NCBI GenBank assembly: GCA_934167225.1
Contig: CAKPLD010000001.1
Span: 2,084 to 66,083 of the forward strand
DNA: 64,000 nucleotides
Direction of reading: 5' to 3'
From: an uncultured Clostridia bacterium
GTDB taxonomy: Bacteria; Bacillota; Clostridia; TANB77; CAG-508
Shown: positions 9,457 through 41,554 of the stretch, piece by piece
Position numbering within the stretch: position 1 is the stretch's first letter
Layout of the letters: every line of letters begins with the position of its first letter
Position numbers and translations under genes: made by a program
Notes under the pieces: generated by a model
Told to the model about the DNA's origin: nothing
What the model saw: the letters and a program-made list of their open reading frames with translations, nothing else
The model's database searches: none

Positions 9457-10314
9457 ATGATTGAAATATTACAAGATGCGGTTATAGACACAATAAAATT
9501 GATACCGTTTTTATTTATAACATATTTGATTATGGAATATATAGAAAATAAAACAAGTGACAAAATAAGAGAAAAAATAAAAAAATCAGGAAGATTTGGA
9601 CCATTAATTGGAGGAGCTGTCGGAATACTGCCACAATGCGGTTTTTCGGCTTCTGCGACCAATTTATATTCATCAAGACTAATATCAATAGGAACATTAA
9701 TTGCAGTATATTTATCAACTTCAGATGAGATGATACCTATATTTATCTCAGAAGCAATGCCAATAGAATTAATTGTAAAAATTCTTGGAATAAAACTGTT
9801 TTTAGGAGTATTTTGGGGTTTTTTGATAGATTTCCTCTATAAAAAATTTATAAAAAGAAAAGACCAAAAAGAATATAATATGGATACTGAAATATGTGAA
9901 GAAGAACATTGCCATTGTCATGAACAAGGAATACTAAAAGCAAGTTTAATTCACACAATGAATATAACTATTTATATATTTGCAATAACATTAATTATTA
10001 ATGGTATTATAGGAATAATTGGGGAAGAGAATATAGAAATATTTATAAAAAATAATCTTTTCTTAGGTCCTGTTATATCTAGCTTAATAGGTCTTATACC
10101 AAATTGTGCAGCTTCTGTTATTATAACAAATTTGTATATTGAAAATGTTATAAATATGTCGTCTTTAATTGCAGGGTTGCTAACAGGAGCAGGTGTTGGA
10201 TTACTTGTGCTATTTAAAACAAATAAAAAAGAATGGAAAGAGAACTTATTTATAGTTGGTTTAATGTATGCAATAGGGGTAAGTTCAGGACTAATATTAC
10301 AATTAATAATATAA
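9457..10314 (+). CDS. two-repeat membrane permease, putatively ArsP_2 / DUF2899-like heavy-metal exporter
   Basis: Internal duplication with LPQCGFSASATNLY and LIPNCAASVIITNLY motifs. A His/Cys-rich loop EEEHCHCHEQ. Confidence 0.4.
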   Translation: MIEILQDAVIDTIKLIPFLFITYLIMEYIENKTSDKIREKIKKSGRFGPLIGGAVGILPQCGFSASATNLYSSRLISIGTLIAVYLSTSDEMIPIFISEAMPIELIVKILGIKLFLGVFWGFLIDFLYKKFIKRKDQKEYNMDTEICEEEHCHCHEQGILKASLIHTMNITIYIFAITLIINGIIGIIGEENIEIFIKNNLFLGPVISSLIGLIPNCAASVIITNLYIENVINMSSLIAGLLTGAGVGLLVLFKTNKKEWKENLFIVGLMYAIGVSSGLILQLII

Positions 10315-10332
10315 GCTTATTTACAGTAAAAC

Positions 10333-10366
10333 AAAAAAGTGGTAATAAAGTTTACCACTTTTTTGT
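10333..10366. terminator. bidirectional intrinsic terminator between convergent genes
   Basis: aaaaaagtggtaa-taaag-tttaccactttttt. Confidence 0.7.
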
Positions 10367-12724
10367 TTAGTTATTTTTAGATCTCTTTTTAAAATTAACA
10401 ACAATAGCATCTTCGTTATCTAATAAAAATTTTGAAGAAGTATTTGCTTGAATTGGATCATCTTCGTCAGTATCTTTATCTCTAAAAGTTACTTTTTTAG
10501 GATTAAATTTCTTTTCAGAAGATATTATTTCGCTAGAGTCATCTGAAATTGCATCACTAGATAAATATTTTGAAAAATCATACTTTTTACCTTTATGTTT
10601 CTCTTTATATTTAGGTGCCATAAAATTGATAATTCCATCACCATTTTGAGGTGCACCATTGTCGCCAATTATCTTAAATGCACATTTCTCATCTGTAAGG
10701 AATTGCATGCTTCCTGCCATTACCTTATCTTTATAATCATATTTTACTTCTTTCATAGATGAACTTAAAGTACCTGTTTTACCGTCGAAATCACGTGGTT
10801 TGTATTGCCATTGTTTCCATTGACCAATTTCTTTTTGCCACCATTGTAATTCATCAATAGGTGCTGCACCACCAGTAAATACCTTACTTGAACAGTTTGA
10901 TAAAATTGTGCTATTAAATTTAGGCATTGCATTGTTATCGTTACCTACCGAAACACCAGGAGTACCAAACATTGAAATACTTTGGGCAGAAATAGTTGTT
11001 CCAATACAATATTTTCTGTACATAGTAAATATTGTTTCTGTATCTTTTGTAACAAAATCTGGAAATTCATCAATATATAAATAATGAGGAATACGTGTTT
11101 TCTCATTACCTGGTCTTCTTAAAACAGCGTTTTGCATTGATAGTAAGAAGAATAGACCAAATGCAGTACTTGCAAATTTTCCAGAATCTCCACGTCGTGT
11201 ACAAATGAAAATAAAATCTCCATTTTGTAATGTTTGGTCAAAATTGATGTTGTTGTGTCTGTTACATAAAATATTTTTAATTTTTGAAGAACGTAGCAAG
11301 TTTTCTAGTCTGCTTGAAATGTAAAATGCATATTTCTCCATATTTTCTAGGCCTCTACTTTGTGGGTAGAAATTCTTTTCGAAGAATGTTATTATCATTG
11401 AATATTCTTCGGCAAGTTCGGTGTCTTTTTTTAGTATTTCACACATTTTTTGTACAAGACCAAAGTTGTTTAATAGTTTTAGTAAATCTTCCATGTTTGG
11501 AAGGATTCCGTCATTCATTTTTGGATATATTAATTTTAAAAGTATTGTTAAATTTTCTAAAATTTGTATAACAACATCTTCAGAATAATTGTCATTATCC
11601 GGAGCTTTAATTCCATTTAATGTAGATGAAATTGTTACTGCAATTGTGTTTGGCTCATCATATACAAATGGGTTTAAACCAACTGAATTTCCTGGACTTA
11701 GCGGGTCTAATAATATATATGAGATACCATAATTTTGACAAACATCGATCATGTTATATATACTTTCTGAATCTGGTGAAAGGTATGTCATACCTATATT
11801 TCTGTAAATAGGTTTTGGTGACCTTGAAAGTATCATTTTTTGCATAAATGTTTTATATAAACTTTCTTTTCCAAATGCAGGAGTTAACATATTTAAGCTG
11901 AAATTATTATTTAAATAATCGTTACTGTAAGGACTGTTTAAAGATGCAATTCCTGTTTTTAATGCTGTAAAACCTAATTCTTTTGAAGCTTCTTTAAAGA
12001 AGTATTTTTTCTCTATATCTTGTGCTATCATTGGTTCGAAAATTCTGGATGTTTTTCCTGTTCCAGATCCACCACATACTAGAAGTGATCTATATCTTGC
12101 AGATTCTCCATATGTTATATTTTTTCCTGTGTTGTAATCATATAGAAAACTTATGTCACACATATAAGAATTGTGTTTTATTGTTGGATCTGATAAGTTT
12201 ATTCCTGTATAGTCCCAAATTGATTTTATTTGCTCAGATGAGTCATTAATTCCAAGTAAAATCTTTTTTGTTATAAATGGGTAGAATGTTACTAATGGTA
12301 TATAAAGTGATATTGCACAAAATGCATGTCTTACCATACTAGGAAATTGTGTAACTATATTTGCGTAGTTTGGTACAGATTGGAATAATATCCATAGTCC
12401 TCCATTTAACCATTGTGTAAATAGCGAAATGGAAATTATATATATTGCTACTAGGTATGTATAAAATAGTGTTACTTTGTGTGCTCTATCATGTGCAAAT
12501 CCTGATTTTCCCGAAAATGCGAATGCAAATGCTGGACATGCCAAAGCTAGGGTGTATCTAAATGGACCCCAGTAGGATGAGGATACACCTGTAAAAATCA
12601 TGAGCAACATTTCTACTATTCTATCTATACATATGTAGAATGAAATTAATGTTAGAATGAAGGTGAAAAAAGTGTTTCTGTTTACATTTAATTTTTTTAA
12701 TAATTTGTCTAATATTTTCATCAT
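10367..12724 (-). CDS. membrane-anchored P-loop NTPase of the TraG/TraD/VirD4 (type IV coupling protein) type; orphan
   Basis: 4-5 N-terminal TM helices. Walker A VCGGSGTGKTS. Walker B HYLYIDEFPDF. Q-motif-like SAQSISMFG. Acidic, Ser-rich C-terminal tail. 785 aa. Confidence 0.45.
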   Translation of the reverse strand: MMKILDKLLKKLNVNRNTFFTFILTLISFYICIDRIVEMLLMIFTGVSSSYWGPFRYTLALACPAFAFAFSGKSGFAHDRAHKVTLFYTYLVAIYIISISLFTQWLNGGLWILFQSVPNYANIVTQFPSMVRHAFCAISLYIPLVTFYPFITKKILLGINDSSEQIKSIWDYTGINLSDPTIKHNSYMCDISFLYDYNTGKNITYGESARYRSLLVCGGSGTGKTSRIFEPMIAQDIEKKYFFKEASKELGFTALKTGIASLNSPYSNDYLNNNFSLNMLTPAFGKESLYKTFMQKMILSRSPKPIYRNIGMTYLSPDSESIYNMIDVCQNYGISYILLDPLSPGNSVGLNPFVYDEPNTIAVTISSTLNGIKAPDNDNYSEDVVIQILENLTILLKLIYPKMNDGILPNMEDLLKLLNNFGLVQKMCEILKKDTELAEEYSMIITFFEKNFYPQSRGLENMEKYAFYISSRLENLLRSSKIKNILCNRHNNINFDQTLQNGDFIFICTRRGDSGKFASTAFGLFFLLSMQNAVLRRPGNEKTRIPHYLYIDEFPDFVTKDTETIFTMYRKYCIGTTISAQSISMFGTPGVSVGNDNNAMPKFNSTILSNCSSKVFTGGAAPIDELQWWQKEIGQWKQWQYKPRDFDGKTGTLSSSMKEVKYDYKDKVMAGSMQFLTDEKCAFKIIGDNGAPQNGDGIINFMAPKYKEKHKGKKYDFSKYLSSDAISDDSSEIISSEKKFNPKKVTFRDKDTDEDDPIQANTSSKFLLDNEDAIVVNFKKRSKNN

Positions 12725-12972
12725 ATATTTATCCCTCTTACTTATTTTTTATATATTATATTATCCTACAAAATGAAGAAAATTACAAGGGAAAAAGTAA
12801 AAAGAATGGAAAAAATTCAAAAATGATTGTAACTTTTTATTTCTAGTAAGAAATAAATTTATTCAAAAAATACTACCCAAAAACCAAATAATGTGATACA
12901 ATAAAAAGCGAAAATATAAGACAAAGGCTTGAGAGCCTTAAAAATATAGAAAAAATAAAGAGGAGGAAAGAT

Positions 12973-13698
12973 ATGTCAGGACATAGCAAATGGAGTAACA
13001 TACAAGCAAAAAAAGGAAAGGCAGATGCAGCAAGAGGAAAAATCTTCACAAAACTAGGAAGAGAATTATTAGTTGCAGTAAAAGCAGGAGGACCAGATCC
13101 AGCTGGAAACTCAAAGTTAAAAGACGTAATTGCAAAATGTAAAGCAGCAAACATGCCAAACGACACAATAAACAATGCCATAAAAAAAGCTTCAGGAGAG
13201 GGAAATACAGCCTCATATGAAGAAATAACATATGAAGGATACGGACCAAATGGAGTAGCTTTAATAGTAGAAGCAAGTACAGACAACAGAAATAGAACAG
13301 CAGCAGATGTAAGACATGTATTTGACAAAGCAGGAGGAAATTTAGGAACAACAGGATGTGTATCATACATGTTTAGCCAAAAAGGAGTAATTATAATAGA
13401 AAAAGAAAACTGCAAACTATCAGAAGACGAACTAATGATGCAAGCACTAGAATGTGGAGCAGAAGACTTTGAAGCAGAAGAAGATGTATACGAAATAACA
13501 ACTGCACCATCAGACTTTTCAAGTGTTAGAGAAGCATTAGAAGGATTAGGACTAGAATTTTTAGAAGCATCAGTTCAAATGGTGCCATCAACAACAGTAG
13601 CATTAGACGAACATGGAGCAGAAAAAATGAATAGACTAATAGATAACTTAAACGACTTAGACGATGTAATGAATGTATATCACAATTGGGAAGAATAA
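12973..13698 (+). CDS. yebC: YebC/PmpR-family transcriptional regulator
   Basis: [31 protein letters not shown] start. 241 aa. Confidence 0.9.
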
Positions 13699-13803: not shown

Positions 13804-14723
13804 ATGATTGAAGATGTAATAGAATACTTGCCAAATTTAATAAAAAATCAAATTGAAAAATACATAGAAAAAAACAACCAAAAAGAAAAAATCGAAGAAA
13901 TAAGGCTAAGAACGGGACAAAGATTAACTTTAAAAATCGGACAAGATATGGAATGTATAAATTACAAAATATCCAAAAAGGAAATAGACGAAACATTTGA
14001 AAACATATGTGAAAAATCAATATATTCATATACAAAGCAAATATCAGAAGGCTTTATAACAATAAAAGGTGGAAATAGAGTTGGAATAACAGGCTCATGT
14101 GTTATTGAAAATAATAGAGTAAAAAACATAAATAATGTATCAAGCTTAAATTTTAGAATAGCAAGGCAAATAAAAGACGTATCAACTCCAATACTAAAAG
14201 ATGTTATAGACATAGAAAATGACACAATTTTCAACACCATGATAGTTTCTCCGCCAGGGGCACGGAAAAACTACAATATTAAGAGATTTGGTAAGAAAAA
14301 TATCTAATCGGCATTCCAGAAATTGGATTTTCTCATAAAACATGTGGAATTGTAGACGAAAGAAATGAAATATCTGCAATGTATAAAGGCATTCCGCAAA
14401 ATGATATTGGTTGTTTTTCGGATGTAATAGATAATGTGCCAAAACCCATAGGCATAAATATGTTAATAAGGTCTATGGCACCACAAATTATTATATGTGA
14501 CGAAATTGGAAGCAAGGAAGACATAGAAGCAATTGAAAAAATGGCTTGTAGTGGAGTTAAGGGGATTTTTACTGCTCATAGTGCATCAATAGAAGAGGTT
14601 TTTCAAAATGTTAATTTAAAAAGGATGATAGATTTAAAACTTGTAAGGAAAATAATTGTTTTAGATAGAGAACATAAAGGCAAAATAAAAGAGGTGCTAG
14701 ATGTTCTAAAATATAATTTGTAA
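13804..14723 (+). CDS. spoIIIAA: stage III sporulation protein AA (ATPase); frame broken twice (about 14263 and 14309) by single-C insertions
   Basis: Removing the c in ggggcaCgga and in aatCggc gives the continuous sequence ...IVSPPGAGKTTILRDLVRKISNGIPEIGFSHKTCGIVDER... Confidence 0.8.
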
Positions 14724-19495: not shown

Positions 19496-20776
19496 ATGAA
19501 AATAGAAAATTACAAAAAAAGAATAGTAGATAAAAAAATAGAACATTATTTAAAATTATTTGGAGCAGTAAGTATTGAAGGACCGAAATATTGTGGAAAA
19601 ACATGGGCTGGAAGATATCATTCTAATAGTGAAATTCTTTTACATAAAACAACAGGAGAGGCATCTAATAATATAGAACTTGCAAAAATTTCGCCTAAAA
19701 TTATTTTAGAAGGAAAAAAACCAAGATTAATTGATGAATGGCAAGAGGCAACTAATTTATGGGATGAAATACGAATTGATGTAGACAAAACAGGTTTAAA
19801 GGGACAATATATTTTAACAGGGTCTTCAACTCCAAATAGAAAAGGAATAGCACATAGTGGAGCAGGAAGATATGGGAAAATTCACTTAAGAACGATGAGT
19901 TTATATGAATCAGGTGATTCTACAGGAGTTATATCGTTAGAAGATATGTGTAATGGTAAATTTGAGGAAAAGGCAACAGGAGAAGTGGATTTGAGAAATT
20001 TAGCTAGATTAATAATTAGAGGAGGATGGCCTGCAAATTTATCTTATTCAGCTAAAGAGTCGGCAGAAGTAATAGAAGAATATATAAACCTAATTATAGA
20101 TGATGATTTATATAAATTAGATGGGATTAATAGAGATAAGCATAAAGTTAGACTCTTATTAAAATCACTAGCGAGAAACGAAAGTACAACAGTATCAAAT
20201 GTGACATTAAAGAAAGATATCAATGAAAAAGAAAATGAAGATATAGATATTGATACAGTAGCATCATATTTAAATGCATTGGACAAATTATTCTTATTAG
20301 ATAATGATGAGCCTTTTTCTACTAATATTCGTTCATCTGTAAGAGTGAAACAATCTGAAAAAAGACATTTTGCAGATCCATCTATAACATGTGCATTATT
20401 AAATATTAAAGACGAAAATAAACTTATAAATGACTTAGAAACCTTTGGATTTTTATTTGAAGCTATGGTCGAAAGAGACCTTAAGATATATGCGGATAGC
20501 TTTAACGCTAAAAGTTATCACTATCAAGATTATCAAGACAAAGAAATAGATAGTGTTATAGAATTAGAAAACGGAAAATGGTGTGCATTTGAAATAAAAT
20601 TAGGAGCACACCAAATTGAAAAAGCTGCAAATGATTTATTGAAGTTAAAGAAACAAATAGCAGATGAAAAAGGAAAAGAACCATCAATTCTTTGTGTAAT
20701 TTGTGGATTAACTAATGCAGCATATAGAAGACCAGACGGGGTTTATGTAGTACCGATTACTGCATTAAAACCATAA
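19496..20776 (+). CDS. AAA-superfamily ATP-binding protein (COG1373-like, AAA plus DUF4143)
   Basis: P-loop IEGPKYCGKTW. 426 aa. Family inferred from overall length and architecture. Confidence 0.6.
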   Translation: MKIENYKKRIVDKKIEHYLKLFGAVSIEGPKYCGKTWAGRYHSNSEILLHKTTGEASNNIELAKISPKIILEGKKPRLIDEWQEATNLWDEIRIDVDKTGLKGQYILTGSSTPNRKGIAHSGAGRYGKIHLRTMSLYESGDSTGVISLEDMCNGKFEEKATGEVDLRNLARLIIRGGWPANLSYSAKESAEVIEEYINLIIDDDLYKLDGINRDKHKVRLLLKSLARNESTTVSNVTLKKDINEKENEDIDIDTVASYLNALDKLFLLDNDEPFSTNIRSSVRVKQSEKRHFADPSITCALLNIKDENKLINDLETFGFLFEAMVERDLKIYADSFNAKSYHYQDYQDKEIDSVIELENGKWCAFEIKLGAHQIEKAANDLLKLKKQIADEKGKEPSILCVICGLTNAAYRRPDGVYVVPITALKP

Positions 20777-21026: not shown

Positions 21027-22178
21027 ATGGCATCAAATCCAATGCAAAGACAAGCAAGAAATTCATTTTTATTAGGAATAGTGGTAACACTAATAATAGC
21101 GGGAATTATAGTGGTATTCCTATTTATGCAAATGAAAAAATTAAGAGAGGAAGTAGACCAAGAAAGAGCATCAAATGTAGACGTATGGGTATTAAATCAA
21201 GACGTAAAATCTGGGCAAGTAATAACAGCAGACTTATTTGCTAAGAAAACAGTAAAATCAAATGGAGTACCTGCAAATGCAACAGATGGGGAGATAGCTA
21301 CTATGTTATCAGGATATGCATTATGTGATAAAGCAGGAAATGATATAAATACAGATTCCGACGGAAAATTATATATGAATGGAGAAAACGGAGCAAAAAC
21401 CACAGTTAATATAGAAGATGCAACAGGAAAATATTATACACAAGCTGCAAATGGAACAAAAACATATATAGAAACAACAACAAAACCATTAATAGCTAAA
21501 GTAGATATGAAAGCAAACACAGTACTTGCACAATCTTTTATAGCAAAATCTGACGATATAGACACAGATGATGTAAGAGTACAAGAATACAACTCAATAG
21601 TATTACCAGTTGACTTATTTACAGATGACTATGTAGATATAAGACTATTATTACCAAGTGGCCAAGATTACATAGTTACATCAAAGAAAAAAGTTACAGT
21701 ACCAGATGTAAATGGAGAATACTTAGCAGATACAATACAAATGAAAATGTCAGAAGACGAAATACTTTCAATGTCAAATGCTATAGTAGAAGCATATAAA
21801 ATAGATGGAGCAAAACTATATGCTACAAAATACACAGATGCAGGAATGCAAGAAGCTTCAACACCAACATATGTTGTAAATGATGTTGTAGCAAAATTAA
21901 TAGAAGCAGATCCAAATATTGTATCAACAGCAATGGCAGCTTTAAGTGCTAGATATAATGCAAATAATGGAGCTTTAAAAGCACAAAGAAGCCAAGGAAT
22001 AAACAGCGAGCTATCAAACCACGGAAATGATGAAAGTGTAACCACAAAAATGGAAGAAAGTATAACATCTACAAAAGAGTCAAGACAACAATACTTACAA
22101 TCATTAACAGGTACAGGTGCAGCTTCGACAGGAACAACTTCAAGTTCAACATCAGCAGGAACAAATTCGACTAACTAA
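21027..22178 (+). CDS. CpaB/RcpC-like pilus assembly protein
   Basis: N-terminal TM. A SAF-like segment VWVLNQDVKSGQVITADLF. Ser/Thr-rich C-terminal tail. First gene of the locus. Confidence 0.45.
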   Translation: MASNPMQRQARNSFLLGIVVTLIIAGIIVVFLFMQMKKLREEVDQERASNVDVWVLNQDVKSGQVITADLFAKKTVKSNGVPANATDGEIATMLSGYALCDKAGNDINTDSDGKLYMNGENGAKTTVNIEDATGKYYTQAANGTKTYIETTTKPLIAKVDMKANTVLAQSFIAKSDDIDTDDVRVQEYNSIVLPVDLFTDDYVDIRLLLPSGQDYIVTSKKKVTVPDVNGEYLADTIQMKMSEDEILSMSNAIVEAYKIDGAKLYATKYTDAGMQEASTPTYVVNDVVAKLIEADPNIVSTAMAALSARYNANNGALKAQRSQGINSELSNHGNDESVTTKMEESITSTKESRQQYLQSLTGTGAASTGTTSSSTSAGTNSTN

Positions 22179-22204
22179 TAAAGAAAGTAGAGAAAGGATT
22201 TTAT

Positions 22205-22924
22205 ATGAAAAAGATAGGATTTATGGGTGCATATGATAAGGCAAATTTCATCACATATGTTGCAAAAATATTAGAATTACTAGGTAACAAGGTTTTAGTA
22301 GTGGATGCAAGTAGTATACAAAAAATTAAATATATAATACCAACTATAAATCCTACTAAATCATATATAACTTCATTTGAAAATATAGACTTTGCAGTAG
22401 GATTTGATGATTGGAATGAAATAGAAAAATATTTAGGAATTAGATTTGATTCAAATGATAACGAAAATGAAAGAGACAATAAAATAAGTAAAGAAATATA
22501 TGACTATGTTTTAATAGATGTAGACACAAGTGAAAAATTAGAAGGTTTTGAATTAGAAATAGCTGAAAAAAAATATTTTGTAACTTCATTTGACATGTTC
22601 TCTTTAAAAAAAGGAATGAGTATATTTAGAAACATAGTAAGACCAATAAACTTAACCAAAATAGAATTTTCGTATGAAGCATCTAAGGAAGATGAGGAGT
22701 ACCTAAATTACATATCATTAGACTACAGAATAAATTGGAGCAATTATGTATTATATTTTCAAATATTAGGGGATGACAACAAAGTATTTGAGGAGAATCA
22801 ACGAATTGAAAGAATAAGATTTAGAAGACTTAGCATAAATTACAAAGAATCACTAGCATATGTAGTTCAAGATATATGCAAAGACGAAAATATTAGCAAA
22901 ATCAAAAGAACAATGAAGGATTAG
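22205..22924 (+). CDS. ParA/MinD-fold protein with a degenerate P-loop (TadZ/CpaE-like pseudo-ATPase)
   Basis: IGFMGAYDKANFITYVAKILELLGNKVLVVDAS occupies the position of the GKGGVGKT...VLLVD motif. Confidence 0.35.
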   Translation: MKKIGFMGAYDKANFITYVAKILELLGNKVLVVDASSIQKIKYIIPTINPTKSYITSFENIDFAVGFDDWNEIEKYLGIRFDSNDNENERDNKISKEIYDYVLIDVDTSEKLEGFELEIAEKKYFVTSFDMFSLKKGMSIFRNIVRPINLTKIEFSYEASKEDEEYLNYISLDYRINWSNYVLYFQILGDDNKVFEENQRIERIRFRRLSINYKESLAYVVQDICKDENISKIKRTMKD

Positions 22925-22935
22925 AGGAGGAAAAT

Positions 22936-23779
22936 ATGTCAATAGTTACTTTTTGGAATGGTACACACGAACAGGTACGGAACAACATCAAGCAGTATAG
23001 CATTTGCCACCAATTTGGCAATAAGACATAACATCAAAGTTTTACTAGTTTCGACATCTCTAAACGATAATCTAATGCAAGAAAGTTTTTGGCCAGAAAG
23101 AAAAAAATCTACATTTTCTTTATTTGGTGGAAAAGTAGGTGCTGGTGCACTTGAAACAAGCGGAATAGTTGGCTTAGATAGAATGCTAAGAGCAAATAAA
23201 CTAACACCAGATATAATAACAGATTATGCAAAAATAGTTCTAACAAATAGACTAGAAATACTATTAGGTGTTGAAAAAGACCAAGAACAATATGATCAAA
23301 TAAAACAAAAATATGCTCAAATAATTACAATGGCTGGAAAATATTATGACATGGTTATAGTAGATTTAGACAAAAAACTTGGAAGCAAAGTTACAATGGA
23401 AATATTAAATGCATCAGACATAGTAATAACATTAGTATCTCAAAGAGCAAAAGATATTGAAGATATACAAAAAATGATAAAAACAGGTCCAGCGTTAAAC
23501 GAAAGAAACACAATCATGGCAATTGGAAAATATATGGATTTATCAAAATATAATGCGAAAAATATAACAAGAAATTTATTAAGAAGAAAAGAGCTGATAA
23601 ATACAATTCCATATAATAACTTATTTTTCGAATCATCACAAGAAGGAACAGTAATAGACCTATTTTTAAATTTTATGAGATTAAAAGAAAAAGATACAAA
23701 TTACAACTTTATATATGAACTGAACAGATTAAATGATGTAATAAAAGAAAAAATAAAAGAACTACAAACAATACAATAA
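22936..23779 (+). CDS. second ParA/MinD-fold TadZ/CpaE-like protein; frame broken at about 22978 by a single-C insertion
   Basis: RBS gaggagg then ATG at 22936. Removing the c in gtaCgga gives MSIVTFWNGTHEQVGTTSSSIAFATNLAIRHNIKVLLVSTS, joined to ORF 22958..23779. Confidence 0.45.
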
Positions 23780-23865
23780 AATATCCAAATTGTATAAGTT
23801 ATAAGCTTATAGTAGAAAGGAGGAAACTTTTATTAAAACAAAATTAATAAAAGTGAGGAAAAATA

Positions 23866-25843
23866 ATGACAATAGTAAATCTAATGCTAATAGTAGCAGT
23901 CATAGCAATAGCGGGATTGATGATATTTTACTATATTAAAGCCCAGAAAAATGCCGAAGTCGTAACCAAAATGGACGTAGATGACCAAACATACACATTA
24001 GGCAAAATGATAGAATTCGTAAAAAGAAGACTAGACGAAATAACAAAAATAAACTTATATGATATTGGTTTATCAGAAGAAGAGCTAAAAAGAAGAAAAA
24101 GCAAAAAGTACGAACTAAAAAAGGCTTTAAAGGGATGTACATATGGTGACGTAAATGATAAAAAATATGTTAAAGAATTAATCTTTGACTTATTATCAAA
24201 AGAATATGGAGTTACAGAAATGAATATATCAAAGGCAATTCCTTTTGATATACCTTCTGTTCTTACATCTCAGGACAAATTTGATATATTAATATATATC
24301 TATAAAAAAGAGTTTGGATATGAAGCATTAAGTGAATTAATTAGAAAATACAAATTAGATGATTTTAAATACATACAAGGAGAAACAAAGCCATGTTATG
24401 TAATTACAGAAGACGAAATTTCCGAAATATTTGAAAAGGAAAATATAGTTTTATCATTTAATGACAAATTAAGTATTGTTGTTCAAAGAATATACCAACA
24501 ATACAAAGGATACTCAAGTATAGATGAAATAAGAGACATGAACATAGATGGTGTATCTGGTGGTGTATCTGGACTTCCAGAAAGCTTTATAAGCCAAGTT
24601 GCACAAACAGATTCAGCAGACTATTTATCACAAATACAAGAACACAAAGTTCAACGTGCATGTGATAGTATATGGATAATGTTTCATGGTAAATCAATAC
24701 GTTTAGCATTTTTATCATTCGGAACAGAAGCAGAGCTAAAAAGGGTATGTCAAAATATATATAAATATAACAACCCAGGACAATTATCAGACACAAATGG
24801 ATATAAAATTAATGAAATGAAAGACGGTTCTCGTGTCGTTGTTGTAAGACCTTCAATGTCAGAAACATGGGCATTCTTCGTAAGAAAATTCGACGTTAAG
24901 CGTGCTACACTAGAACAAATAGTTTTATATCCAGGAAAAGAAGACACAATTGCACTTTTAAAATATTTAGTAAAAGGTGCAAGAATTATATCACTAACTG
25001 GTGAACAAGGTTGCCGGAAAGACAACAATGCTTATGGCAATGATTGAAAACATATATGAAACAATGAACTTACGTATTACAGAAACGGCGTTCGAGTTAC
25101 ACTTAAGAAAAATTTACCCAACACGAAACATCGTATCAATGCGTGAAACAGACACAATAGCAGGTCAAGAGTGTTTGGACGTTCAAAAGAAAACAGATGG
25201 TTCTGTTAACATCATCGGTGAGGTTGCAACAGACCCCGTAGCATCTTGGATGATACAATCAGCCCAAGTTGCATCTAAATTTACATTATTTACTCACCAT
25301 GCTAAAACATTTCCAGATTTAGTAACAGCCCTTCGTAACTCAATGTTAAGAGCTGGAGTTTTCAGAAATGAAAAAACAGCAGAAGAGCAAGTTGTACAAG
25401 TACTAAATTTCGACATTCACTTAGTAAAAGACTATAGAGGAAATCGTTATATAGAAAGAATAACAGAATGTATACCAGTAGAAAACAAAAATGAATATAC
25501 ATTTGATCACAGAAACGAAAAAACATTAGAAGGAAAATTCGATAAATTTTTCGATAATGCAACACACTACTTCATGAAAACAACAGACAAACAATTATAT
25601 ATATACAGAAACATATTAGAATATGTTGATGGAGAATATATAATAACAAACAAAATATCAGACAAAAACATAAGAGAAATGAGACTAAATATGACAGATG
25701 CCGATGCGGAAGAATTTGACGACTTTGTTGCAAGACACTGGGGAAAAGAAAGTGTATACAGAATGGAAGAAGAAAGAAAACAAAAATCAAAAATTTCAGC
25801 TGGAGCAAGCAAAAGAACAAGAAAAACTAAAACTACTGAGTAA
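23866..25843 (+). CDS. cpaF: CpaF/TadA (VirB11-family) secretion ATPase with an N-terminal TM helix; frame broken at about 25015 by a 1-nt insertion
   Basis: After repair, Walker A is GEQGCGKTTMLMAMIEN. Asp box RITETAFELHL. His box FTLFTHHAKT. N-terminus LMLIVAVIAIAGLMIFYYI. Repair joins ORFs 23866..25047 and 25001..25843. Confidence 0.75.
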
Positions 25844-25859
25844 GGAGGTGTAGGTCATA

Positions 25860-27926
25860 ATGTCAAATAATACGTTGCTTTACTTAATATATATTATTGG
25901 TGGCATTTTCGTATTTATTGTTATAGCATATCTAGTGCTAAGCAAACAAATGGGAAAAAGTGAATATCAAAAAATAAAAAAATTAAGACAAGGAACAGAA
26001 ACAAATAAGTTTTCACTAGAAATACTTTACCAAAAATTATACATAACATATTCAAGAATTCCATTTATAAAATCCTACATCTTAAAACTAAGAAGAAGGC
26101 TAGAAATTATAAATGTAGATGATGAATATGCAACACGTAGAGATTCTGCAAAAATATTATCAAAAACATTATTAGTACTAATTCCAATAATGACATTATC
26201 GATAATATTAACACACACAAACTACTTGTTACTATCTATAATATTAATATTCGAAATATTTATGATGGACAGCTTTATAGATGGAATGGTTGATAAAATA
26301 GATAATACACTACTTAAAGAGCAATTAGATTTCTTTGCAGAAATAAGACATGCTTACCACGAATTTAACATGGTAGAAGAAGCAATATACCAAATATCAC
26401 AAGATGACGAAAAAAGCATATCTAAACAAGGTGACAAAATATATGAAGTACTAATTGCCAATGATCCAGAAATGGAACTAGAAAAATATTATGATATTGC
26501 GCCAAACCCATATTTAAAGGAATTTGCAGGGGTATCATACTTAACAAAAGAATTTGGAGATAGAAAAGTAGATAAAACATCACTATACTTAAAAAACGTA
26601 AATAACATAACAGAAGAAATGCAAATAGAAATATTAAAAAGAGATAAAATAGACTATGTGTTCCAAAGTTTATCAATAATCTCAATAGTACCAGTATTAG
26701 GACTAGAGCCATTAAAAAATTGGTCAATAGACAATTTTAGTTTCACACAAAACTTTTATTGTGGAAAAGGTGGAATGTTAGTACAAATACTTGTAATATT
26801 ACTAACAGTAATATGTTACTTACTTTTAAGAAAAATAAAAAATAATGGATCAACAGACAAAAGCACACAAAACACACAAAATCCATGGCAAGCAAAAGTA
26901 TATAAAAACCCAATTGGTAAAAAAATTGTCGATTTATTTATACCAAAAAAGGGAACAAAAGATTATATAAAAACACAAAAATTACTAAAAGATTCTGCCT
27001 CAAAACTGAAAATGGAATGGCTGTATGTAAACAGAATAACAATTGCAATTGTAACATTTATTGTATCATTATTCTTATTTGTTCAGTTACACGCAACAGC
27101 GGTAAACTGGATTTACACAGAGCCTACAACCGACTATGACATAATGGGAGGAGTTACAGGAGCAGAACTAGAAAAGGCAAAAGCCTTAACAGAAAGTGAT
27201 AACAAATTTTTGGATATGTTTAGAGGAAACACAAAAACAACTGTAAACGATATTCAAAAAGTAATGACAAGATCAAAAGATTATGCAGACAGCACAGATG
27301 AAGAAATTCAAACAGCAGCACAGAGAGTATACGAAAAATTACAAAAAGTAAATAAAGAATACTTAGGTTGGTTTGAAGTTTTATTATCAGTAATATTTAT
27401 GATAATTGCATATATGTCTCCAATATGGATAATGTGGTTCCAATTAAAAATGAGACAAATGGAAATGGAAGACGAAGTAATGCAGTTCCAAACAATTATC
27501 TTAATGCTTATGAGAATAGAGCGTGTAAATGTTGAAATAATTCTAGAATGGCTAGAACGTTATGCAAACATATTTAAAGAACCAATATCAAGATGTGTTA
27601 ACAACTACGAATCAGGTGCATGGGAGGCTTTGGAAGCTCTTAAAAACGAAACAAATTATCAACAATTTATAAGAATAGTAGAAAGCTTACAAGCAGCGGT
27701 TGAAAAAATACCAATTAGAGATGCATTTGATGAATTAGACTCAGATAGAGATTATTACCAAGCAAAAAGACGTGAATCAAATGACAGATTAATTGCTAAA
27801 AAAGCCAGAATTGGTAAATTTATTGGATTTGCACCAATGGTAGTAATGTTTGTTGGATACTTGATTGTACCACTAGTATTTATAGGTTTAACAAGTATGT
27901 CAAGTTCGATGGCAAGTTTAAAATAA
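25860..27926 (+). CDS. polytopic inner-membrane platform protein, TadB/TadC (GspF)-like, apparently fused (688 aa)
   Basis: TM helices at the N-terminus, the centre and the C-terminus, separated by cytoplasmic helical domains. Position directly after the CpaF-like ATPase. Confidence 0.4.
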   Translation: MSNNTLLYLIYIIGGIFVFIVIAYLVLSKQMGKSEYQKIKKLRQGTETNKFSLEILYQKLYITYSRIPFIKSYILKLRRRLEIINVDDEYATRRDSAKILSKTLLVLIPIMTLSIILTHTNYLLLSIILIFEIFMMDSFIDGMVDKIDNTLLKEQLDFFAEIRHAYHEFNMVEEAIYQISQDDEKSISKQGDKIYEVLIANDPEMELEKYYDIAPNPYLKEFAGVSYLTKEFGDRKVDKTSLYLKNVNNITEEMQIEILKRDKIDYVFQSLSIISIVPVLGLEPLKNWSIDNFSFTQNFYCGKGGMLVQILVILLTVICYLLLRKIKNNGSTDKSTQNTQNPWQAKVYKNPIGKKIVDLFIPKKGTKDYIKTQKLLKDSASKLKMEWLYVNRITIAIVTFIVSLFLFVQLHATAVNWIYTEPTTDYDIMGGVTGAELEKAKALTESDNKFLDMFRGNTKTTVNDIQKVMTRSKDYADSTDEEIQTAAQRVYEKLQKVNKEYLGWFEVLLSVIFMIIAYMSPIWIMWFQLKMRQMEMEDEVMQFQTIILMLMRIERVNVEIILEWLERYANIFKEPISRCVNNYESGAWEALEALKNETNYQQFIRIVESLQAAVEKIPIRDAFDELDSDRDYYQAKRRESNDRLIAKKARIGKFIGFAPMVVMFVGYLIVPLVFIGLTSMSSSMASLK

Positions 27927-27941
27927 TGGAGGTGAGATATT

Positions 27942-28670
27942 TTGGAAAATGCATCAAAAGCACTAATAATGGCAGGTGGAATGTTACTTGCAATACTTAT
28001 TATATCACTACTAATATATGCGTGGAGTTTATTTTCAAAATATCAAGCTTCCCAAGATTCTCTTTCAGAAATAGAAGATGTTTCAAAATTTAATGAGCAA
28101 TTTGCTAATTACGAACGAGACGAAATTCAGGGATACGAAATACTTAGCTTGGTAAATAAAGTTATAGATTATAATTATAGAAAATCTAATGCTGGTGGTG
28201 CGAAAAATGATGAAAAATATACTCCAATTACTCTTATAATAAATTTAGATGGTAAACAAAATACATTGACTCCAGATGGAACCGTAAGACTTTTTGGAAC
28301 ATCAACATATACACAAAGTGCTGTTTCAAATGCATTTTCAGACATTTTAAAAGAAACAGGAAAGATAGAAGCACGTTATGGTGGAGTAGATAGTGCAACA
28401 AAAATAGCAAAAGGATTTGAGTCTATGAAAGCACTTAATGATGATGCTGCTATAAAAAGATTTAAATCATATTGTACTAATGCAACCATATCTTCGAGAA
28501 TAACTACCAAGGATGATGTACTTGGAGAACGAGAAAATGCCTATAAATATTGGGAATATATACAATTTAAAAAGGGAATATTTAACTTTGTTTCGAGTCC
28601 TGATGAATATGATAAAACATCTGGAAGAATTGTAAAAATGAATTTTATATTTACTGGATACTTTAATTAA
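27942..28670 (+). CDS. MENASKALI-family protein 1 (242 aa); candidate prepilin-like subunit
   Basis: TTG start after RBS ggaggtgag. N-terminus MENASKALIMAGGMLLAILIISLLIY, then a soluble domain. Confidence 0.5.
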   Translation: MENASKALIMAGGMLLAILIISLLIYAWSLFSKYQASQDSLSEIEDVSKFNEQFANYERDEIQGYEILSLVNKVIDYNYRKSNAGGAKNDEKYTPITLIINLDGKQNTLTPDGTVRLFGTSTYTQSAVSNAFSDILKETGKIEARYGGVDSATKIAKGFESMKALNDDAAIKRFKSYCTNATISSRITTKDDVLGERENAYKYWEYIQFKKGIFNFVSSPDEYDKTSGRIVKMNFIFTGYFN

Positions 28671-28682
28671 AAGGAGTAAAAC

Positions 28683-29135
28683 ATGGAAAATGCATCAAAA
28701 GCCTTAATAATATCAGCAGGAGTGCTTATTGCAATACTATTGTTAACATTGTTTTCGTATTTATTTATGAAAATGTCATCATCAACTTCAGAGGTATATG
28801 ACATGATGAGCAAACATGAAAAAGACGAATTTAATCAACAGTTTTTTAATTACGAAGGAAGAGGAATAAGAACAAACGCTGACCCTCTTACACCGCAAGA
28901 AGTTGCGACTCTAATAAATTTAGCACAAGATAGTAAAGAAAAAACTAAGTTTTCAGCAAATGTTGCAATTATGCTAGGAAGTGAAAATCTAACAAACCAA
29001 GCATCAGCAAGTGAATGGCTAGCTAAACAAATGCAAAACTCAGCAGACAAGGACAAAAGATATGACTGCGAAAGTGTAACAATTGATCAAACAACATTAT
29101 TAGTAAACAAGGTAACACTTAAGGTGCACTCATAA
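28683..29135 (+). CDS. MENASKALI-family protein 2 (150 aa)
   Basis: MENASKALIISAGVLIAILLLTLFSY. Strong RBS. Confidence 0.5.
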   Translation: MENASKALIISAGVLIAILLLTLFSYLFMKMSSSTSEVYDMMSKHEKDEFNQQFFNYEGRGIRTNADPLTPQEVATLINLAQDSKEKTKFSANVAIMLGSENLTNQASASEWLAKQMQNSADKDKRYDCESVTIDQTTLLVNKVTLKVHS

Positions 29136-29162
29136 ATTTATAAAACAAAAAGGAATGAAAAT

Positions 29163-29594
29163 ATGAATAAAACATTTATATTTATTGTATGTATACTAAT
29201 TATTATATTATCTATATTTGGAATGAAATATTTAGATTATAAAGATGAAAATGCCAAAATAAAGCAGGAAAATCTTGAATATGAAGTATATCTAAATAAA
29301 GAAGTTTCTGGTAGAGATCTTACAACAGCAATAAATAGAGCAATAAATAGTAATGATAAGAATAAAGTATCTAAAGATGAAAATGGAATGTATATTGAAA
29401 ATAATACAAATTCAATAAAAATTGAAATTAAAATTTTAGATAATGATACTACTTATCAAATGGAAACCCTTTATAATGGAGGAATGGTAGATTTTATTCA
29501 ATATTATGGCGATATTTCTTTTGAATGTACTCAAATTGATTACAATGAAAAAGGTTGTGTAAGCCATATGGTTTTTGAACAAAAATCTAGTTAA
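29163..29594 (+). CDS. small N-terminally membrane-anchored protein (143 aa)
   Basis: MNKTFIFIVCILIIILSIFG signal-anchor. Located within the pilin-like gene block. Confidence 0.45.
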   Translation: MNKTFIFIVCILIIILSIFGMKYLDYKDENAKIKQENLEYEVYLNKEVSGRDLTTAINRAINSNDKNKVSKDENGMYIENNTNSIKIEIKILDNDTTYQMETLYNGGMVDFIQYYGDISFECTQIDYNEKGCVSHMVFEQKSS

Positions 29595-29692
29595 ATTTAG
29601 TTATTAATATTAGATGAGATTGATTGTCCATAAGATTGATTTTGTCTAGGTAAATAAAATAATATATATATAAAATAAAGGAGGAATTTATT

Positions 29693-30115
29693 ATGGAAAA
29701 CGCTTCAAAAGCTTTAATTATAGCAGGTGCTATACTATTATCAATTTTAATTATATCATTGGGTATCATGGTATATAATAATGCAAAAAATACTGTAGGA
29801 AGTGCAAATTTAAGTAAGCAGGAGATTCAAACTTTTAACTCTCAATTTGAAAATTATGAGGGAAGCAATAAAACTGCTAGTGAAATTAGAACTATGTATC
29901 AAGCTGTTATTGCTAGTAATGCTTCTGAAACTAAATCAGGAACATCTAGAAAGGTTTCAATTACTGGTTCAGATACTGCTGCTTGCGGAACTCCAAACAC
30001 TACTTTACAAACAGCACCAACATCAACACCAACAGTATCAAATGCAAATACATATACAGTAAAATTGGGATACTCAACAGATGGATTAGTTGTAGATATA
30101 GCATGGGGTAAATAA
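29693..30115 (+). CDS. MENASKALI-family protein 3 (140 aa)
   Basis: MENASKALIIAGAILLSILIISLGIMVY. Thr/Ser-rich C-terminus. Confidence 0.5.
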   Translation: MENASKALIIAGAILLSILIISLGIMVYNNAKNTVGSANLSKQEIQTFNSQFENYEGSNKTASEIRTMYQAVIASNASETKSGTSRKVSITGSDTAACGTPNTTLQTAPTSTPTVSNANTYTVKLGYSTDGLVVDIAWGK

Positions 30116-30139
30116 ACCTTAATTGAAAGGAATTATATT

Positions 30140-30577
30140 ATGGAGAATGCGTCAAAAGCTTTGATTATGGCTGGTGCAATATTAATAGCAATATTAATAA
30201 TTTCGCTAGGTGTATATGTTTTTAACAATATGAGTAGTACTGCTAAAAATTCTGCAAATATGGATAAGCAAGAAATTTCTAATTTCAACTCAAAAATAAC
30301 ACCATATTTAGGAGAAAATGTAACAGGAACACAGGTCAACTCATTAATACAATTGGTAATATCAATAGATAATGCCGCTGTAAGTTCAAATGGGAACATA
30401 AATAAAAAAATTGACATTACTTTTCCAGGTGGTTCAATAACTGTTAACGGAACAACTGTTAATGGAATAAATGGAACTAAAAGAGTAGAAACAGGACCTA
30501 ATAAAACATATAAAGTTAAAGAAACATACAATAATTCAACAGGATTAATAAATGCAATTGAAGTTACAGCAAATTAA
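30140..30577 (+). CDS. MENASKALI-family protein 4 (145 aa)
   Basis: MENASKALIMAGAILIAILIISLGVYVF. Confidence 0.5.
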   Translation: MENASKALIMAGAILIAILIISLGVYVFNNMSSTAKNSANMDKQEISNFNSKITPYLGENVTGTQVNSLIQLVISIDNAAVSSNGNINKKIDITFPGGSITVNGTTVNGINGTKRVETGPNKTYKVKETYNNSTGLINAIEVTAN

Positions 30578-30598
30578 AAAAAGAAAGGAGATATACAA

Positions 30599-39476: not shown

Positions 39477-40334
39477 ATGACGCAAGCAGACAAAAATTTC
39501 ATAGATACATGTAAAGAAATATTAGAACACGGTTATTCATCAGAGGGAACAGGAGTAAGAACAAGATGGGAAGATGGATCAGAAGCAAATTATTATTCAA
39601 TAATAGGAGTAACAAACAAATATGATATAGAAAAAGAATTTCCGATGATAACACTAAGAAATAACACAAACACAGTAAAGAGAGCAATAGATGAAATTTT
39701 GTGGATATGGCAAAAAAAATCAAATAAAGTAAGTGAACTAAACTCTCATATATGGGATCAATGGGCAGGAGAAGATGGAACAATTGGAAAAGCATATGGA
39801 TACCAAATGGCGAAAAAGTATGAGTTCAAAACCAAAGATGGAATGCAAAAACTAGATCAAGTAGATTATATGTTATATCTATTAAAAAACGATCCAGCAA
39901 GCAGAAGAATAATGACCAACATATTTAATTTTGAGGACTTAAAAGATATGAACCTAGAGCCATGCGCTTTTGGTACACAATGGCTTGTAAAAGAAGGAAA
40001 ATTACATTTAATATTAAACCAACGTTCACAAGATATGCTAGCGGCAAATGGATGGAATACTATGCAATACTCAGCATTGCTATGCATGGTAGCTCAATGT
40101 GTAGGTTTAAAGCCAGGAAGCTTAACACATAACATTGGAGATTGTCACATATATGACAGACATATTCCACTAATAAAAAAATTAATAGAGGCAGAGCCAA
40201 TGAATGTTACGCCAAAACTTATAATAAAAAACGACACAAAAAACTTCTACGAGTTTAAAGTAGAGGATTTTGAAATACAAGGATATGACTATAATAAAGA
40301 AATAAAATTAGGAAAAATACCAGTAGCCATATAA
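39477..40334 (+). CDS. thyA: thymidylate synthase
   Basis: RSQDMLAANGWNTMQYSALLCMVAQCVGL...GDCHIYDRH motifs. 285 aa. Confidence 0.85.
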   Translation: MTQADKNFIDTCKEILEHGYSSEGTGVRTRWEDGSEANYYSIIGVTNKYDIEKEFPMITLRNNTNTVKRAIDEILWIWQKKSNKVSELNSHIWDQWAGEDGTIGKAYGYQMAKKYEFKTKDGMQKLDQVDYMLYLLKNDPASRRIMTNIFNFEDLKDMNLEPCAFGTQWLVKEGKLHLILNQRSQDMLAANGWNTMQYSALLCMVAQCVGLKPGSLTHNIGDCHIYDRHIPLIKKLIEAEPMNVTPKLIIKNDTKNFYEFKVEDFEIQGYDYNKEIKLGKIPVAI

Positions 40335-40366
40335 CAATAGATAAAACAAGAAAGGAACCAAGAAAA

Positions 40367-40861
40367 ATGTTAAGTATAATAGTTGCAAAATCTATAAATA
40401 ATGCTATAGGAAAAGATAATAAATTATTATGGAAAATACCAGATGATATGAAAAGATTTAAAGAAATAACAACAGGACACACTGTTATTATGGGAAGAAA
40501 AACATTTGAATCAATAGGTAAAGTATTACCAAACAGATTAAATATTATTTTAACAAGAGATCCAAGCTATAAAATAGATGATCCAAATGTAAAAATCCTA
40601 GGTGGAGTATCAGATCTAGAAGAATACATAAATGATGATAATGAAAATTTTGTAATAGGTGGTGCTCAAATTTATAGTATTCTTATGCCAAAATGTAAAA
40701 AAATTTATGTAACACAAATTGATAAAGATTTTGTGGGAGATAGCTATTTTCCAATAATTCGTGAAAACGAATGGAAAATTGTGGAAAAAGTTGATGGACC
40801 AAAAGATGACAACAGCTTTAAATATGAATATATAACTTATGAAAGAAAAAGTAATAAATAA
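40367..40861 (+). CDS. folA: dihydrofolate reductase
   Basis: MLSIIVAKSINNAIGKDNKLLWKIPDDMKRFKEITTGHTVIMGRKTFESIG. Confidence 0.85.
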   Translation: MLSIIVAKSINNAIGKDNKLLWKIPDDMKRFKEITTGHTVIMGRKTFESIGKVLPNRLNIILTRDPSYKIDDPNVKILGGVSDLEEYINDDNENFVIGGAQIYSILMPKCKKIYVTQIDKDFVGDSYFPIIRENEWKIVEKVDGPKDDNSFKYEYITYERKSNK

Positions 40862-40917
40862 TTGTAAATTGAATATAAATAATACTAATTATAAAGTGTG
40901 AAAGGATTGATGTTTCT

Positions 40918-41298: not shown

Positions 41299-41387
41299 TG
41301 GCTGTTGGATTTTTTTAACGTTGTTACTTTAATATTTTGGGTATTGATTTTTATAATTGCAGGTTAAGTCTATAAAAAGTAGAACAA

Positions 41388-41424
41388 AAAGACTGGGAAA
41401 ATGTTGAAACCCCAGTCTTTTTTA
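41388..41424 (+). terminator. intrinsic terminator
   Basis: aagactggg...cccagtctt plus T6. Confidence 0.65.
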
Positions 41425-41554
41425 CATCTACTCCACTTATCTAATTTTCTCAAAAGATTTACTCTACACTACCAAAATAAAATTAAGAAAAAAGCACTTG
41501 ACATTTTGATAACTATATTATATAGTATAGAAAACTAGATGGAGGAAAAAGAAA

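Follow-up and report, generated by a model that had tools for sequence, protein, structure and literature searches.

A type IV coupling protein-like membrane ATPase encoded among core genes of uncultured gut Clostridia, with relatives on large Bacillota plasmids

The window analysed here is a stretch of 64,000 nucleotides (64 kb) from an uncultured Clostridia bacterium (contig CAKPLD010000001.1, positions 2,084 to 66,083, forward strand). On its minus strand, at 10367-12724, it carries a gene for a membrane ATPase of 785 amino acids that resembles type IV coupling proteins (T4CPs). Coupling proteins are regarded as hallmarks of mobile elements. The protein has, with high confidence, the fold and the ATPase of a T4CP, with a borderline formal membership in the corresponding models. 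The gene is also highly likely to be functional and vertically inherited. Its homologues in low-GC gut Clostridia are chromosomal, single-copy and scattered among housekeeping genes. The protein belongs to a T4CP clade whose members on large Bacillota plasmids are grouped in a module with genes for an S1-domain protein and for one or two Replic_Relax (RR) proteins. On these plasmids, a Tad-like operon lies beside the module, and often VirB4/TcpE-type genes of a type IV secretion system (T4SS) do so too. That the protein serves as coupling ATPase in a plasmid-related transfer system now fixed in the chromosome has about an even chance of being correct; the link to a Tad-like pilus operon in the same window (21027-33709, plus strand) is circumstantial.

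Fold and family of the ATPase

The open reading frame (ORF) is intact and begins with ATG. The Walker A motif VCGGSGTGKTS occupies residues 216-226 (12047-12079, minus strand; GGSGTGKTS from residue 218), the Walker B motif YLYIDEFPDF residues 548-557 (11054-11083, minus strand; YIDE at 550-553), and SAQSISMFG begins at residue 579. In 33 of 34 diverse family members, the Walker A signature G-x-GKT and the Walker B signature YID(E/D) are kept, and G218, G223, K224 and T225 are invariant or nearly so across the family. An earlier note, made from the DNA letters alone, had reported this minus-strand ORF and its three motifs and had recognized in them the architecture of conjugative coupling proteins; all of this is borne out.

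The N-terminal membrane domain (residues 1-161; 12242-12724, minus strand) is kept throughout the full-length chromosomal family. Hydropathy peaks at residues 18-49, 83-104 and 133-152, and more weakly at 55-73. The AlphaFold2 (AF2) model of the protein, with a mean predicted local distance difference test (pLDDT) value of 81.7 and a predicted template modelling score (pTM) of 0.70, contains four long helices at 16-45, 54-71, 80-115 and 128-161. Four is the best count of predicted transmembrane helices from hydropathy and model, which narrows the four to five of the earlier note. A helical block at about residues 382-486 of the model (11267-11581, minus strand) is a candidate for the all-alpha domain inserted in the nucleoside triphosphate-binding domain; the model TrwB_AAD_bind matches ten of the 34 relatives and not the window protein. 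A C-terminal beta-rich domain follows at about residues 635-700 (10625-10822, minus strand), with predicted strands at 635-642, 658-666, 680-686 and 692-699. It is common to the T4CPs of Clostridium plasmids, whose alignment with the window protein reaches residue 720. The last part, residues 724-785 (10370-10555, minus strand), is predicted to be disordered (pLDDT <50) and consists of serine-rich, acidic and basic stretches. The tail had been called acidic and Ser-rich. Serine-rich and acidic patches are present, but residues 701-785 hold 16 D/E against 18 K/R besides 11 Ser and are not net acidic.

Pfam searches with the 34 family members gave TraG-D_C for 24, T4SS-DNA_transf for 13 and TrwB_AAD_bind for ten, with a best E of 3e-16. 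Precomputed annotations of many orthologues name PF12696/PF02534. The Pfam models for FtsK_SpoIIIE, DUF87/HerA and VirB4 matched none of the 34 members, nor the window protein. The sequence search of the PDB with the window protein yielded no match; the family profile matched DotL only (E 0.03). In a Foldseek search with the AF2 model, Cagbeta (8dol) and TrwB (1e9s, 1gki, 1gl6) ranked first with E 4e-11 to 1e-9, at TM-scores of about 0.6 (on target) and 10-14% identity to the solved T4CPs. DndH-C, HerA (E 2e-7 and weaker), DotL and VirB4 (E 1.5e-5) took lower ranks, and FtsK was absent from the top 50 matches. An identity as FtsK, HerA or VirB4 was rejected on the Pfam results for the protein and its 34 relatives and on the fold ranking; the profile comparison that the earlier note had proposed as a check thus favours the coupling proteins. 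The T4CP fold and an active ATPase were accepted because of the family matches, the fold ranking and the conservation of Walker A and B. A component of an anti-phage defence system was also considered and rejected, as the PADLOC defence-system models had no match to the protein.

Distribution, selection and inheritance

By word-indexed search, the protein has more than 2,800 homologues of equal length. An exhaustive search gave 2,180 cluster representatives at E<=1e-3, with full-length relatives down to about 25-35% identity. Gene neighbourhoods were compared in about 170 fetched related loci, including 80 genome and 80 metagenome loci. All 80 genome loci belong to metagenome-assembled genomes of uncultured gut Clostridia, which are 80 species-representative genomes. 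The ratio of non-synonymous to synonymous substitution rates (dN/dS) against eight orthologues ranged from 0.07 to 0.16, and from 0.07 to 0.11 for the six closest, i.e. around 0.1, at dS values of 0.85-1.3. The identities of the T4CP and of the neighbouring permease fall in step (85/78%, 75/71% and 53/59%).

Housekeeping genes flank the T4CP gene in every arrangement and differ between lineages. The flanking sets comprise infC-rpmI-rplT with murG/ftsW; glmS, BofA and DUF2508; HU and a MurJ/SpoVB-like gene; tig-clpPX with rpmB and an NFACT gene; pth; and pyrG. In most loci, the T4CP gene stands alone on the strand opposite its neighbours. The comparison of synteny suggested in the earlier note therefore shows core genes on the flanks throughout, in arrangements that vary with the lineage, and the orphan status described there holds for the window only.

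One rival reading takes the gene for a remnant, left by an integrated conjugative element or plasmid and no longer functional; the earlier note had considered a remnant of an integrated element. It is alone in the window, without a relaxase or T4SS gene, it lies on the strand opposite nearly all its neighbours, and its closest annotated relatives are plasmid-borne. Against this, more than 2,800 homologues keep an intact ORF of full length, the low dN/dS of the closest orthologues goes along with conserved catalytic motifs, and the core-gene setting recurs in the related loci. Several other genes of the window are frameshifted while the T4CP-like gene is intact. Its GC content (0.28-0.29) equals the level of the rest of the window. 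An integrase was found neither in the window flanks nor among the identified recurrent neighbour genes of the related loci. A remnant is strongly disfavoured and scarcely probable. An integrative and conjugative element, an integrative and mobilizable element (IME) or an island was rejected: there is no integrase, no flanking repeat and no GC anomaly, the flanks are core genes, and the gene recurs in the 80 species-representative genomes. The gene is flipped relative to its neighbour in two lineages, and an invertible element was considered; it was rejected, since the flanks of the T4CP gene contain no repeats, just AT-rich matches at about 72%.

The protein might instead be a translocase of DNA or protein in a host process unrelated to gene transfer, e.g. 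sporulation or cell division; the T4CP gene behaves like a core gene. It lies 1.1 kb from the spoIIIA channel operon, divergent from yebC-spoIIIAA-AH, and the lineage has sporulation genes (spoIIM, BofA, spoIVB). However, not one of the roughly 170 related loci has spoIIIA or yebC next to the T4CP gene, and the conserved partners (MOB_C-type protein, S1 protein, Tad-like operon) all have counterparts on plasmids. Such a host role is very unlikely. A functional link to the spoIIIA operon or to yebC was rejected, as the adjacency is kept in no related locus.

Partner genes in related loci

In closer relatives (51-85% identity), an ArsP_2-family permease gene adjoins the T4CP gene, in convergent or tandem order, in 32 of 80 genome loci and 58 of 80 metagenome loci. 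The window has this arrangement: the permease gene (9457-10314, plus strand; Pfam PF11449) lies on one side and yebC on the other, in accordance with the earlier placement between a metal-exporter-like permease and yebC. The T4CP might work with the permease, e.g. as an energising or regulatory ATPase. The adjacency is kept from 51% to 85% identity in both the convergent and the tandem order (gap of about 70 bp). Nevertheless, it is absent from the group with 42-48% identity, from the relatives with 35-39% identity and from P0036 (73% identity). No permease is annotated or matched beside the T4CP in the plasmid modules examined, and both genes converge on a terminator in most loci. A partnership with the permease is highly improbable.

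The group with 42-48% identity (32 loci) has other neighbours. Here, the T4CP gene adjoins a gene for a Replic_Relax protein of 312 amino acids (28.4 bits to the Pfam model, cutoff 25.3), followed by an S1-domain gene. Convergent and tandem versions of the T4CP-Replic_Relax adjacency were both found, and the arrangement of T4CP, Replic_Relax and S1 recurs at 35% and 39% identity (L081, L083). The earlier note mentions neither these partners nor the lineage-wide vertical inheritance of the T4CP gene. Replic_Relax (PF13814) is a member of the PD-(D/E)XK superfamily (PMC3424549) and has been equated with the MOB_C relaxase class (PMC5357655). The S1-RR pair is very widespread and strongly conserved: the search gave more than 5,294 proteins, and identity is 68-100% among the best 120. 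In four loci (L086-L089), S1 and Replic_Relax form a tight two-gene unit with a gap of 30 bp, flanked by hisS and dtd, and mraZ follows about 4 kb downstream. The pair is conserved at about 80% identity there, which exceeds the conservation of the T4CP across comparable lineages.

Relatives on plasmids

A tblastn search of 72,556 plasmids identified the T4CPs of Clostridium beijerinckii p1 and of six C. botulinum plasmids of 134-144 kb as the nearest plasmid relatives, with 28-29% identity over residues 90-720 (E 1e-40 to 1e-43). About 6 kb from the T4CP, the Clostridium plasmids carry an S1 gene and a Replic_Relax-like gene for about 300 amino acids. The latter protein aligns with the chromosomal Replic_Relax protein in hhalign (98.7% probability, E 3e-16), and the S1 proteins share 27% identity (E 2e-11). 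The transfer-like region of these plasmids also includes TraC-like, DUF87/VirB4-like and VirB6-like genes, hydrolases and a gene annotated 'T2SS/T4P/T4SS family ATPase'.

The TadA-like ATPase of the window found homologues in 34 of the 72,556 plasmid records, all of them large Bacillota plasmids typed as non-mobilizable by MOB-suite. These 34 include ten of the 25 plasmids that have a T4CP match at E<=1e-13 and at least 15 of the 21 that have a Sporosarcina-type T4CP, counts that are not phylogenetically independent. On plasmid pSP10-266k of Sporosarcina, the genes RR-T4CP-S1-RR are followed by ParM and then by a divergent operon, which encodes a SAF protein, two ParA-like proteins, the ATPase, a membrane protein of 684 amino acids and small proteins. 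Plasmids of Lysinibacillus and Thermobacillus contain the same suite with modules of the RR-T4CP-S1-RR type.

The Tad-like operon and its distance from the T4CP gene

The Tad-like pilus operon of the window (21027-33709) is the candidate partner machinery. It encodes a SAF/CpaB-like protein, two ParA-like proteins, a TadA-like ATPase (frameshifted), a platform protein of 688 amino acids, pilin-like paralogues and a protein of 603 amino acids. The operon is colinear with operons on Thermobacillus, Sporosarcina, Lysinibacillus and Clostridium plasmids. Identities are 46% for the SAF protein, 47-58% for the ATPase and 30-38% for the platform protein, and two downstream genes match as well. A plasmid protein annotated TadA is 56-58% identical to the ATPase. 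Most genes of the operon have no match in Pfam. The first gene gave a weak ChapFlgA match, its plasmid homologues being annotated as SAF-domain proteins, and one ParA-like gene gave a weak AAA_31 match. A prepilin peptidase, which a Tad/Flp system would also be expected to have, did not turn up in Pfam scans of the window.

Five of the six small genes at 27942-31165 are paralogues and candidate pilins, whose products start with MENAS(K/D)ALI and continue with a hydrophobic helix; Pfam matches none of the small genes, and some of them resemble small proteins of the plasmid operons. The TadA-like ATPase gene is split into 23866-25047 and 25001-25843, with an extra C before GGA in the Walker A codons ('tgcCggaaag', about 25013). 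A similar split occurs in spoIIIAA (13804-14307 and 14379-14723), in which two single extra C bases before GG are suggested, 'gcaCggaaaa' at about 14263 in the Walker A codons and 'aatCggc' at about 14309. The split of spoIIIAA could be an assembly error or a real pseudogene. The insertion of C before GG that both genes have in common suggests a systematic sequencing or base-calling artefact. A genuine frameshift in the TadA-like ATPase would mean that this strain has an inactive Tad-like machine.

T4CP and Tad-like operon occur within 10 kb of each other in three lineages and in three geometries. In the window, they are divergent, and yebC, spoIIIA and DUF4143 lie in the 8.3 kb that separates them. 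In L009, L098, L099 and L100 (T4CP 76% identical), they are convergent, and the end of the operon is about 2 kb from the T4CP stop codon. In L151 and L155 (T4CP 51% identical), they are on the same strand at a distance of about 6 kb, in the order Tad operon, spoIVB, class I (Trp/Tyr) tRNA synthetase, obg, ArsP_2 and T4CP. A rough binomial estimate for three such proximities is about 3e-3, assuming a dozen or so arrangement classes, which are not strictly independent, and genomes of about 2 Mb. Chance is an unlikely cause of the three proximities. The earlier note had placed the Tad-like locus 8 kb downstream of the T4CP gene. The distance is right; the operon is on the 5' side of the gene, divergent from it, and downstream in window coordinates only. 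The idea, raised in the same place, that the ATPase was recruited to a nearby filament system gains circumstantial support from the three chromosomal proximities and from the colinear operons of T4CP-bearing plasmids.

A plasmid-related transfer system and its rival

In the proposed mechanism, the S1 and Replic_Relax proteins would bind and process DNA. The T4CP, a hexamer by analogy, would recognise the nucleoprotein substrate via its all-alpha domain and C-terminal region and spend ATP on driving it to or through a membrane machine. The Tad-like apparatus 8 kb away may supply an envelope-spanning filament, a conduit or cell contact. It is presumed here that the substrate is DNA and that T4CP and Tad-like machine cooperate; the direction of the transport and its purpose are presumed as well. 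Membership of the T4CP in a system that includes the Tad-like operon and S1/RR could go either way. DNA transfer as the function of this system is proposed tentatively, with the odds somewhat on the other side. A lineage-wide, conjugation-like DNA transfer by scattered core genes, in which a VirD4-type ATPase, a MOB_C-type nuclease and the S1 protein feed a Tad-like (type IVc) machine, is an unlikely extension.

Several observations weigh against the proposed system. On its own, the window protein stays below every Pfam and NCBIfam cutoff: it scores 19.9 bits with TraG-D_C (cutoff 22), does not match T4SS-DNA_transf, and reaches 26.2 bits with the NCBIfam model NF045973 conju_CD1115 (equivalog cutoff 250). 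The Pfam scan of about 56 window ORFs, mostly of at least 95 amino acids, detected no relaxase, VirB4 or other T4SS family, in agreement with the earlier note, which saw no conjugation genes there. An RR or S1 homologue is likewise missing from the 64-kb window, and the S1/Replic_Relax pair, seen in relatives, has not been placed in the genome from which the window comes. The pair also occurs with no T4CP within 10 kb (hisS-S1-RR-dtd). Unrelated core genes (yebC, spoIIIA) separate the T4CP gene from the Tad-like operon, and most of the related loci have no Tad-like genes within 10 kb. A coupling protein is not known from any Tad system. On the plasmids, the lack of phylogenetic independence adds to this, and the co-occurrence of T4CP and Tad-like operon could reflect a shared backbone and not one machine. 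VirB4-type genes are also present on the Clostridium and Thermobacillus plasmids.

These VirB4-type genes lead to another explanation. The T4CP may serve a canonical Gram-positive T4SS of the VirB4 type whose genes are located elsewhere on the chromosome, with the Tad-like proximity being incidental or a matter of mating-pair adhesion only. In locus L081 (35% identity), TraC-like and VirB4-like genes lie 7-8 kb from T4CP-RR-S1, and the VirB4-like protein is 35% identical to a C. botulinum plasmid protein (E 7e-101). Very long contigs of low-GC Clostridia often carry VirB4-like homologues, in operons that also contain TrbC/T4SS-pilin-like and TraC-like genes and lie among core genes. Contigs of 158-536 kb from low-GC (27-31%) gut Clostridia contain such T4SS-like operons with no T4CP within 10 kb, and their VirB4-like ATPase shares 42% identity with a C. 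botulinum plasmid protein. The dispersed canonical T4SS stays under consideration because of L081 and these operons. On the other side, neither the window nor the 10 kb around the T4CP in any closer relative contains a VirB4-like or TraC-like gene, and a VirB4 operon has not been placed in any genome of the window's lineage. A 42-kb region of the Sporosarcina plasmid holds the T4CP module and the Tad-like operon with no gene annotated as VirB4, DUF87 or conjugation ATPase. A canonical T4SS as the partner is rather doubtful. As a separate observation, the operons of L177-L180 (contigs of 14-536 kb, 27-33% GC) lie among housekeeping genes with no T4CP or relaxase within 10 kb. Their products are TrbC/T4SS-pilin-like proteins, one TraC-like protein, one VirB4-like ATPase and a number of large proteins with no annotation.

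Significance

The coupling protein gene of this study behaves like a vertically inherited and strongly constrained chromosomal gene across an abundant uncultured gut lineage. Its conserved MOB_C-type, S1 and Tad-like partners are all found again on large Bacillota plasmids, which MOB-suite classes as non-mobilizable. Should the parts act together, they would represent a new route of DNA transfer in gut Firmicutes, and megaplasmids of Lysinibacillus, Paenibacillus, Sporosarcina and Clostridium botulinum would have to be reclassified as potentially self-transmissible. The lineage-wide transfer, if true, would add an undescribed Gram-positive apparatus, the unrecognised transfer system of many 'non-mobilizable' Bacillota megaplasmids and a host-encoded exchange of chromosomal DNA. 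A conservative reading helps annotation, as the family is now unnamed or has a generic name. The domain resemblance to T4CPs is already known via the NCBI label of one relative, 'TraM recognition domain-containing protein'. A description of the association of T4CP, Replic_Relax and Tad-like operon, of the S1/MOB_C partnership, of the core-like chromosomal status or of the four-helix variant was not found in the literature.

Expression signals and gene neighbourhood

A ribosome-binding site, AAGAGGGA, is located at 12732-12739 and ends 7 nt ahead of the T4CP start codon. Further upstream, a sigma-70-like sequence TTGTAA-17-GATAAT at 12760-12788 is a putative promoter, called from the consensus match alone. 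Both signals (12732-12788) are on the minus strand. Between the convergent T4CP and ArsP_2 genes, a hairpin at 10329-10368 has a perfect stem of 17 bp and a loop of 6 nt, with an A-run upstream and a T-run downstream. It resembles a bidirectional intrinsic terminator, as the earlier note had recognized.

The gene order of the window, based on Pfam, is truB, spoIIM-like, pyrG, CmpB, ArsP_2, T4CP-like (minus strand), yebC, spoIIIAA-spoIIIAH and a DUF4143/AAA_14 ATPase gene. The operon of about 13 kb from 21027 follows, then a PDDEXK_2 transposase-like gene, murC, miaB-like, thyA, folA, pyrC, holB and giant surface proteins. The genes are mostly on the plus strand, and the T4CP-like gene opposes both its neighbours, with yebC (12973-13698) divergent from it. 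Rfam at the gathering threshold gave no match in the 64 kb (no tRNA, riboswitch, T-box or rRNA).

In L015, the nearest long relative (T4CP 85% identical), both outer flanks of the window are present, ArsP_2 on one side and the genes of 38021-44552 at 75-96% identity on the other. In place of the 25-kb block at 12725-38020 (yebC, spoIIIA, DUF4143, Tad-like operon, PDDEXK_2, murC), it carries infC-rpmI-rplT and a methylthioadenosine (MTA)-nucleosidase-like gene. This difference is a large rearrangement between near relatives. Two genes at the borders of the Tad-like operon have homologues near T4CP genes elsewhere. The DUF4143/AAA_14 ATPase gene (19496-20776), between spoIIIAH and the operon, has a 28%-identical homologue in L004 (12486) between T4CP and ArsP_2. 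The PDDEXK_2 gene (PD-(D/E)XK transposase family, 35066-35848), just past the operon, has homologues directly upstream of the T4CP in L025 and L035.

Frameshifts seem to affect further genes. An HlyIII-family gene is apparently split into 41555-41986 and 41937-42230, and a surface protein of 2471 amino acids with fn3 domains (50453-57868) carries on in another frame as an ORF of 955 amino acids (57798-60662). A giant ORF from 60915 (>1028 amino acids) extends past the window end. The giant fn3 protein had no match at E<=1e-5 to giant surface proteins of the plasmids. Small DUF4160 and DUF2442 genes form a pair at 44536-45142, between pyrC-like and cobW-like genes; such a pairing is often seen as a toxin-antitoxin-like cassette.

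Comparison with known systems

The window protein resembles TrwB (R388), Cagbeta/VirD4 (Helicobacter pylori) and DotL (Legionella) in being a P-loop ATPase anchored in the membrane, with a predicted helical insertion that separates Walker A from Walker B. It differs from the solved T4CPs by its low identity, an additional C-terminal beta-rich domain and Pfam scores below the cutoff. Compared with the genes for TrwB, Cagbeta and DotL, the window gene is a monocistronic chromosomal gene that is inherited vertically and has neither a relaxase nor a T4SS next to it.

The module of CloDF13-type mobilisation consists of the T4CP MobB and the relaxase MobC. This module and the streptococcal MOB_C (PF13814) IMEs likewise combine a T4CP with a Replic_Relax/MOB_C-type protein without adjacent mating-pore genes. 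In contrast to these, the MOB_C-like gene is absent from the window itself, no integrase or element boundaries are present, the genes are scattered and chromosomally fixed, and an S1 partner is found.

The Gram-positive T4CP CstD4 has two transmembrane helices (PMC5770547), whereas four long ones are predicted for the window protein. The clostridial conjugation locus cst/Pcp comprises this T4CP type with two helices and a MOB_MG relaxase (PMC5770547). Membership in this locus was rejected because of the different architecture, the two being set apart by the published description and not by sequence comparison.

The operon shares with Tad/Flp (type IVc) pilus systems the SAF/CpaB-like, ParA/TadZ-like, TadA/CpaF-like ATPase, platform and pilin-like proteins, and its plasmid homologues are annotated TadA/CpaF. 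Unlike in these systems, most of its proteins miss the Pfam models, and the ATPase sequence starts with a hydrophobic, transmembrane-like stretch. The nearest annotated relatives of the T4CP are those of C. beijerinckii p1 (NZ_CP107023) and of the C. botulinum plasmids of the pFWSKR40E1 type (NZ_KT897275-80). These T4CPs differ in length (923-1001 amino acids), in being plasmid-borne and in their location inside a transfer region with DUF87/VirB4-like, VirB6-like and hydrolase genes; the plasmids carry S1, Replic_Relax-like and Tad-like operon homologues.

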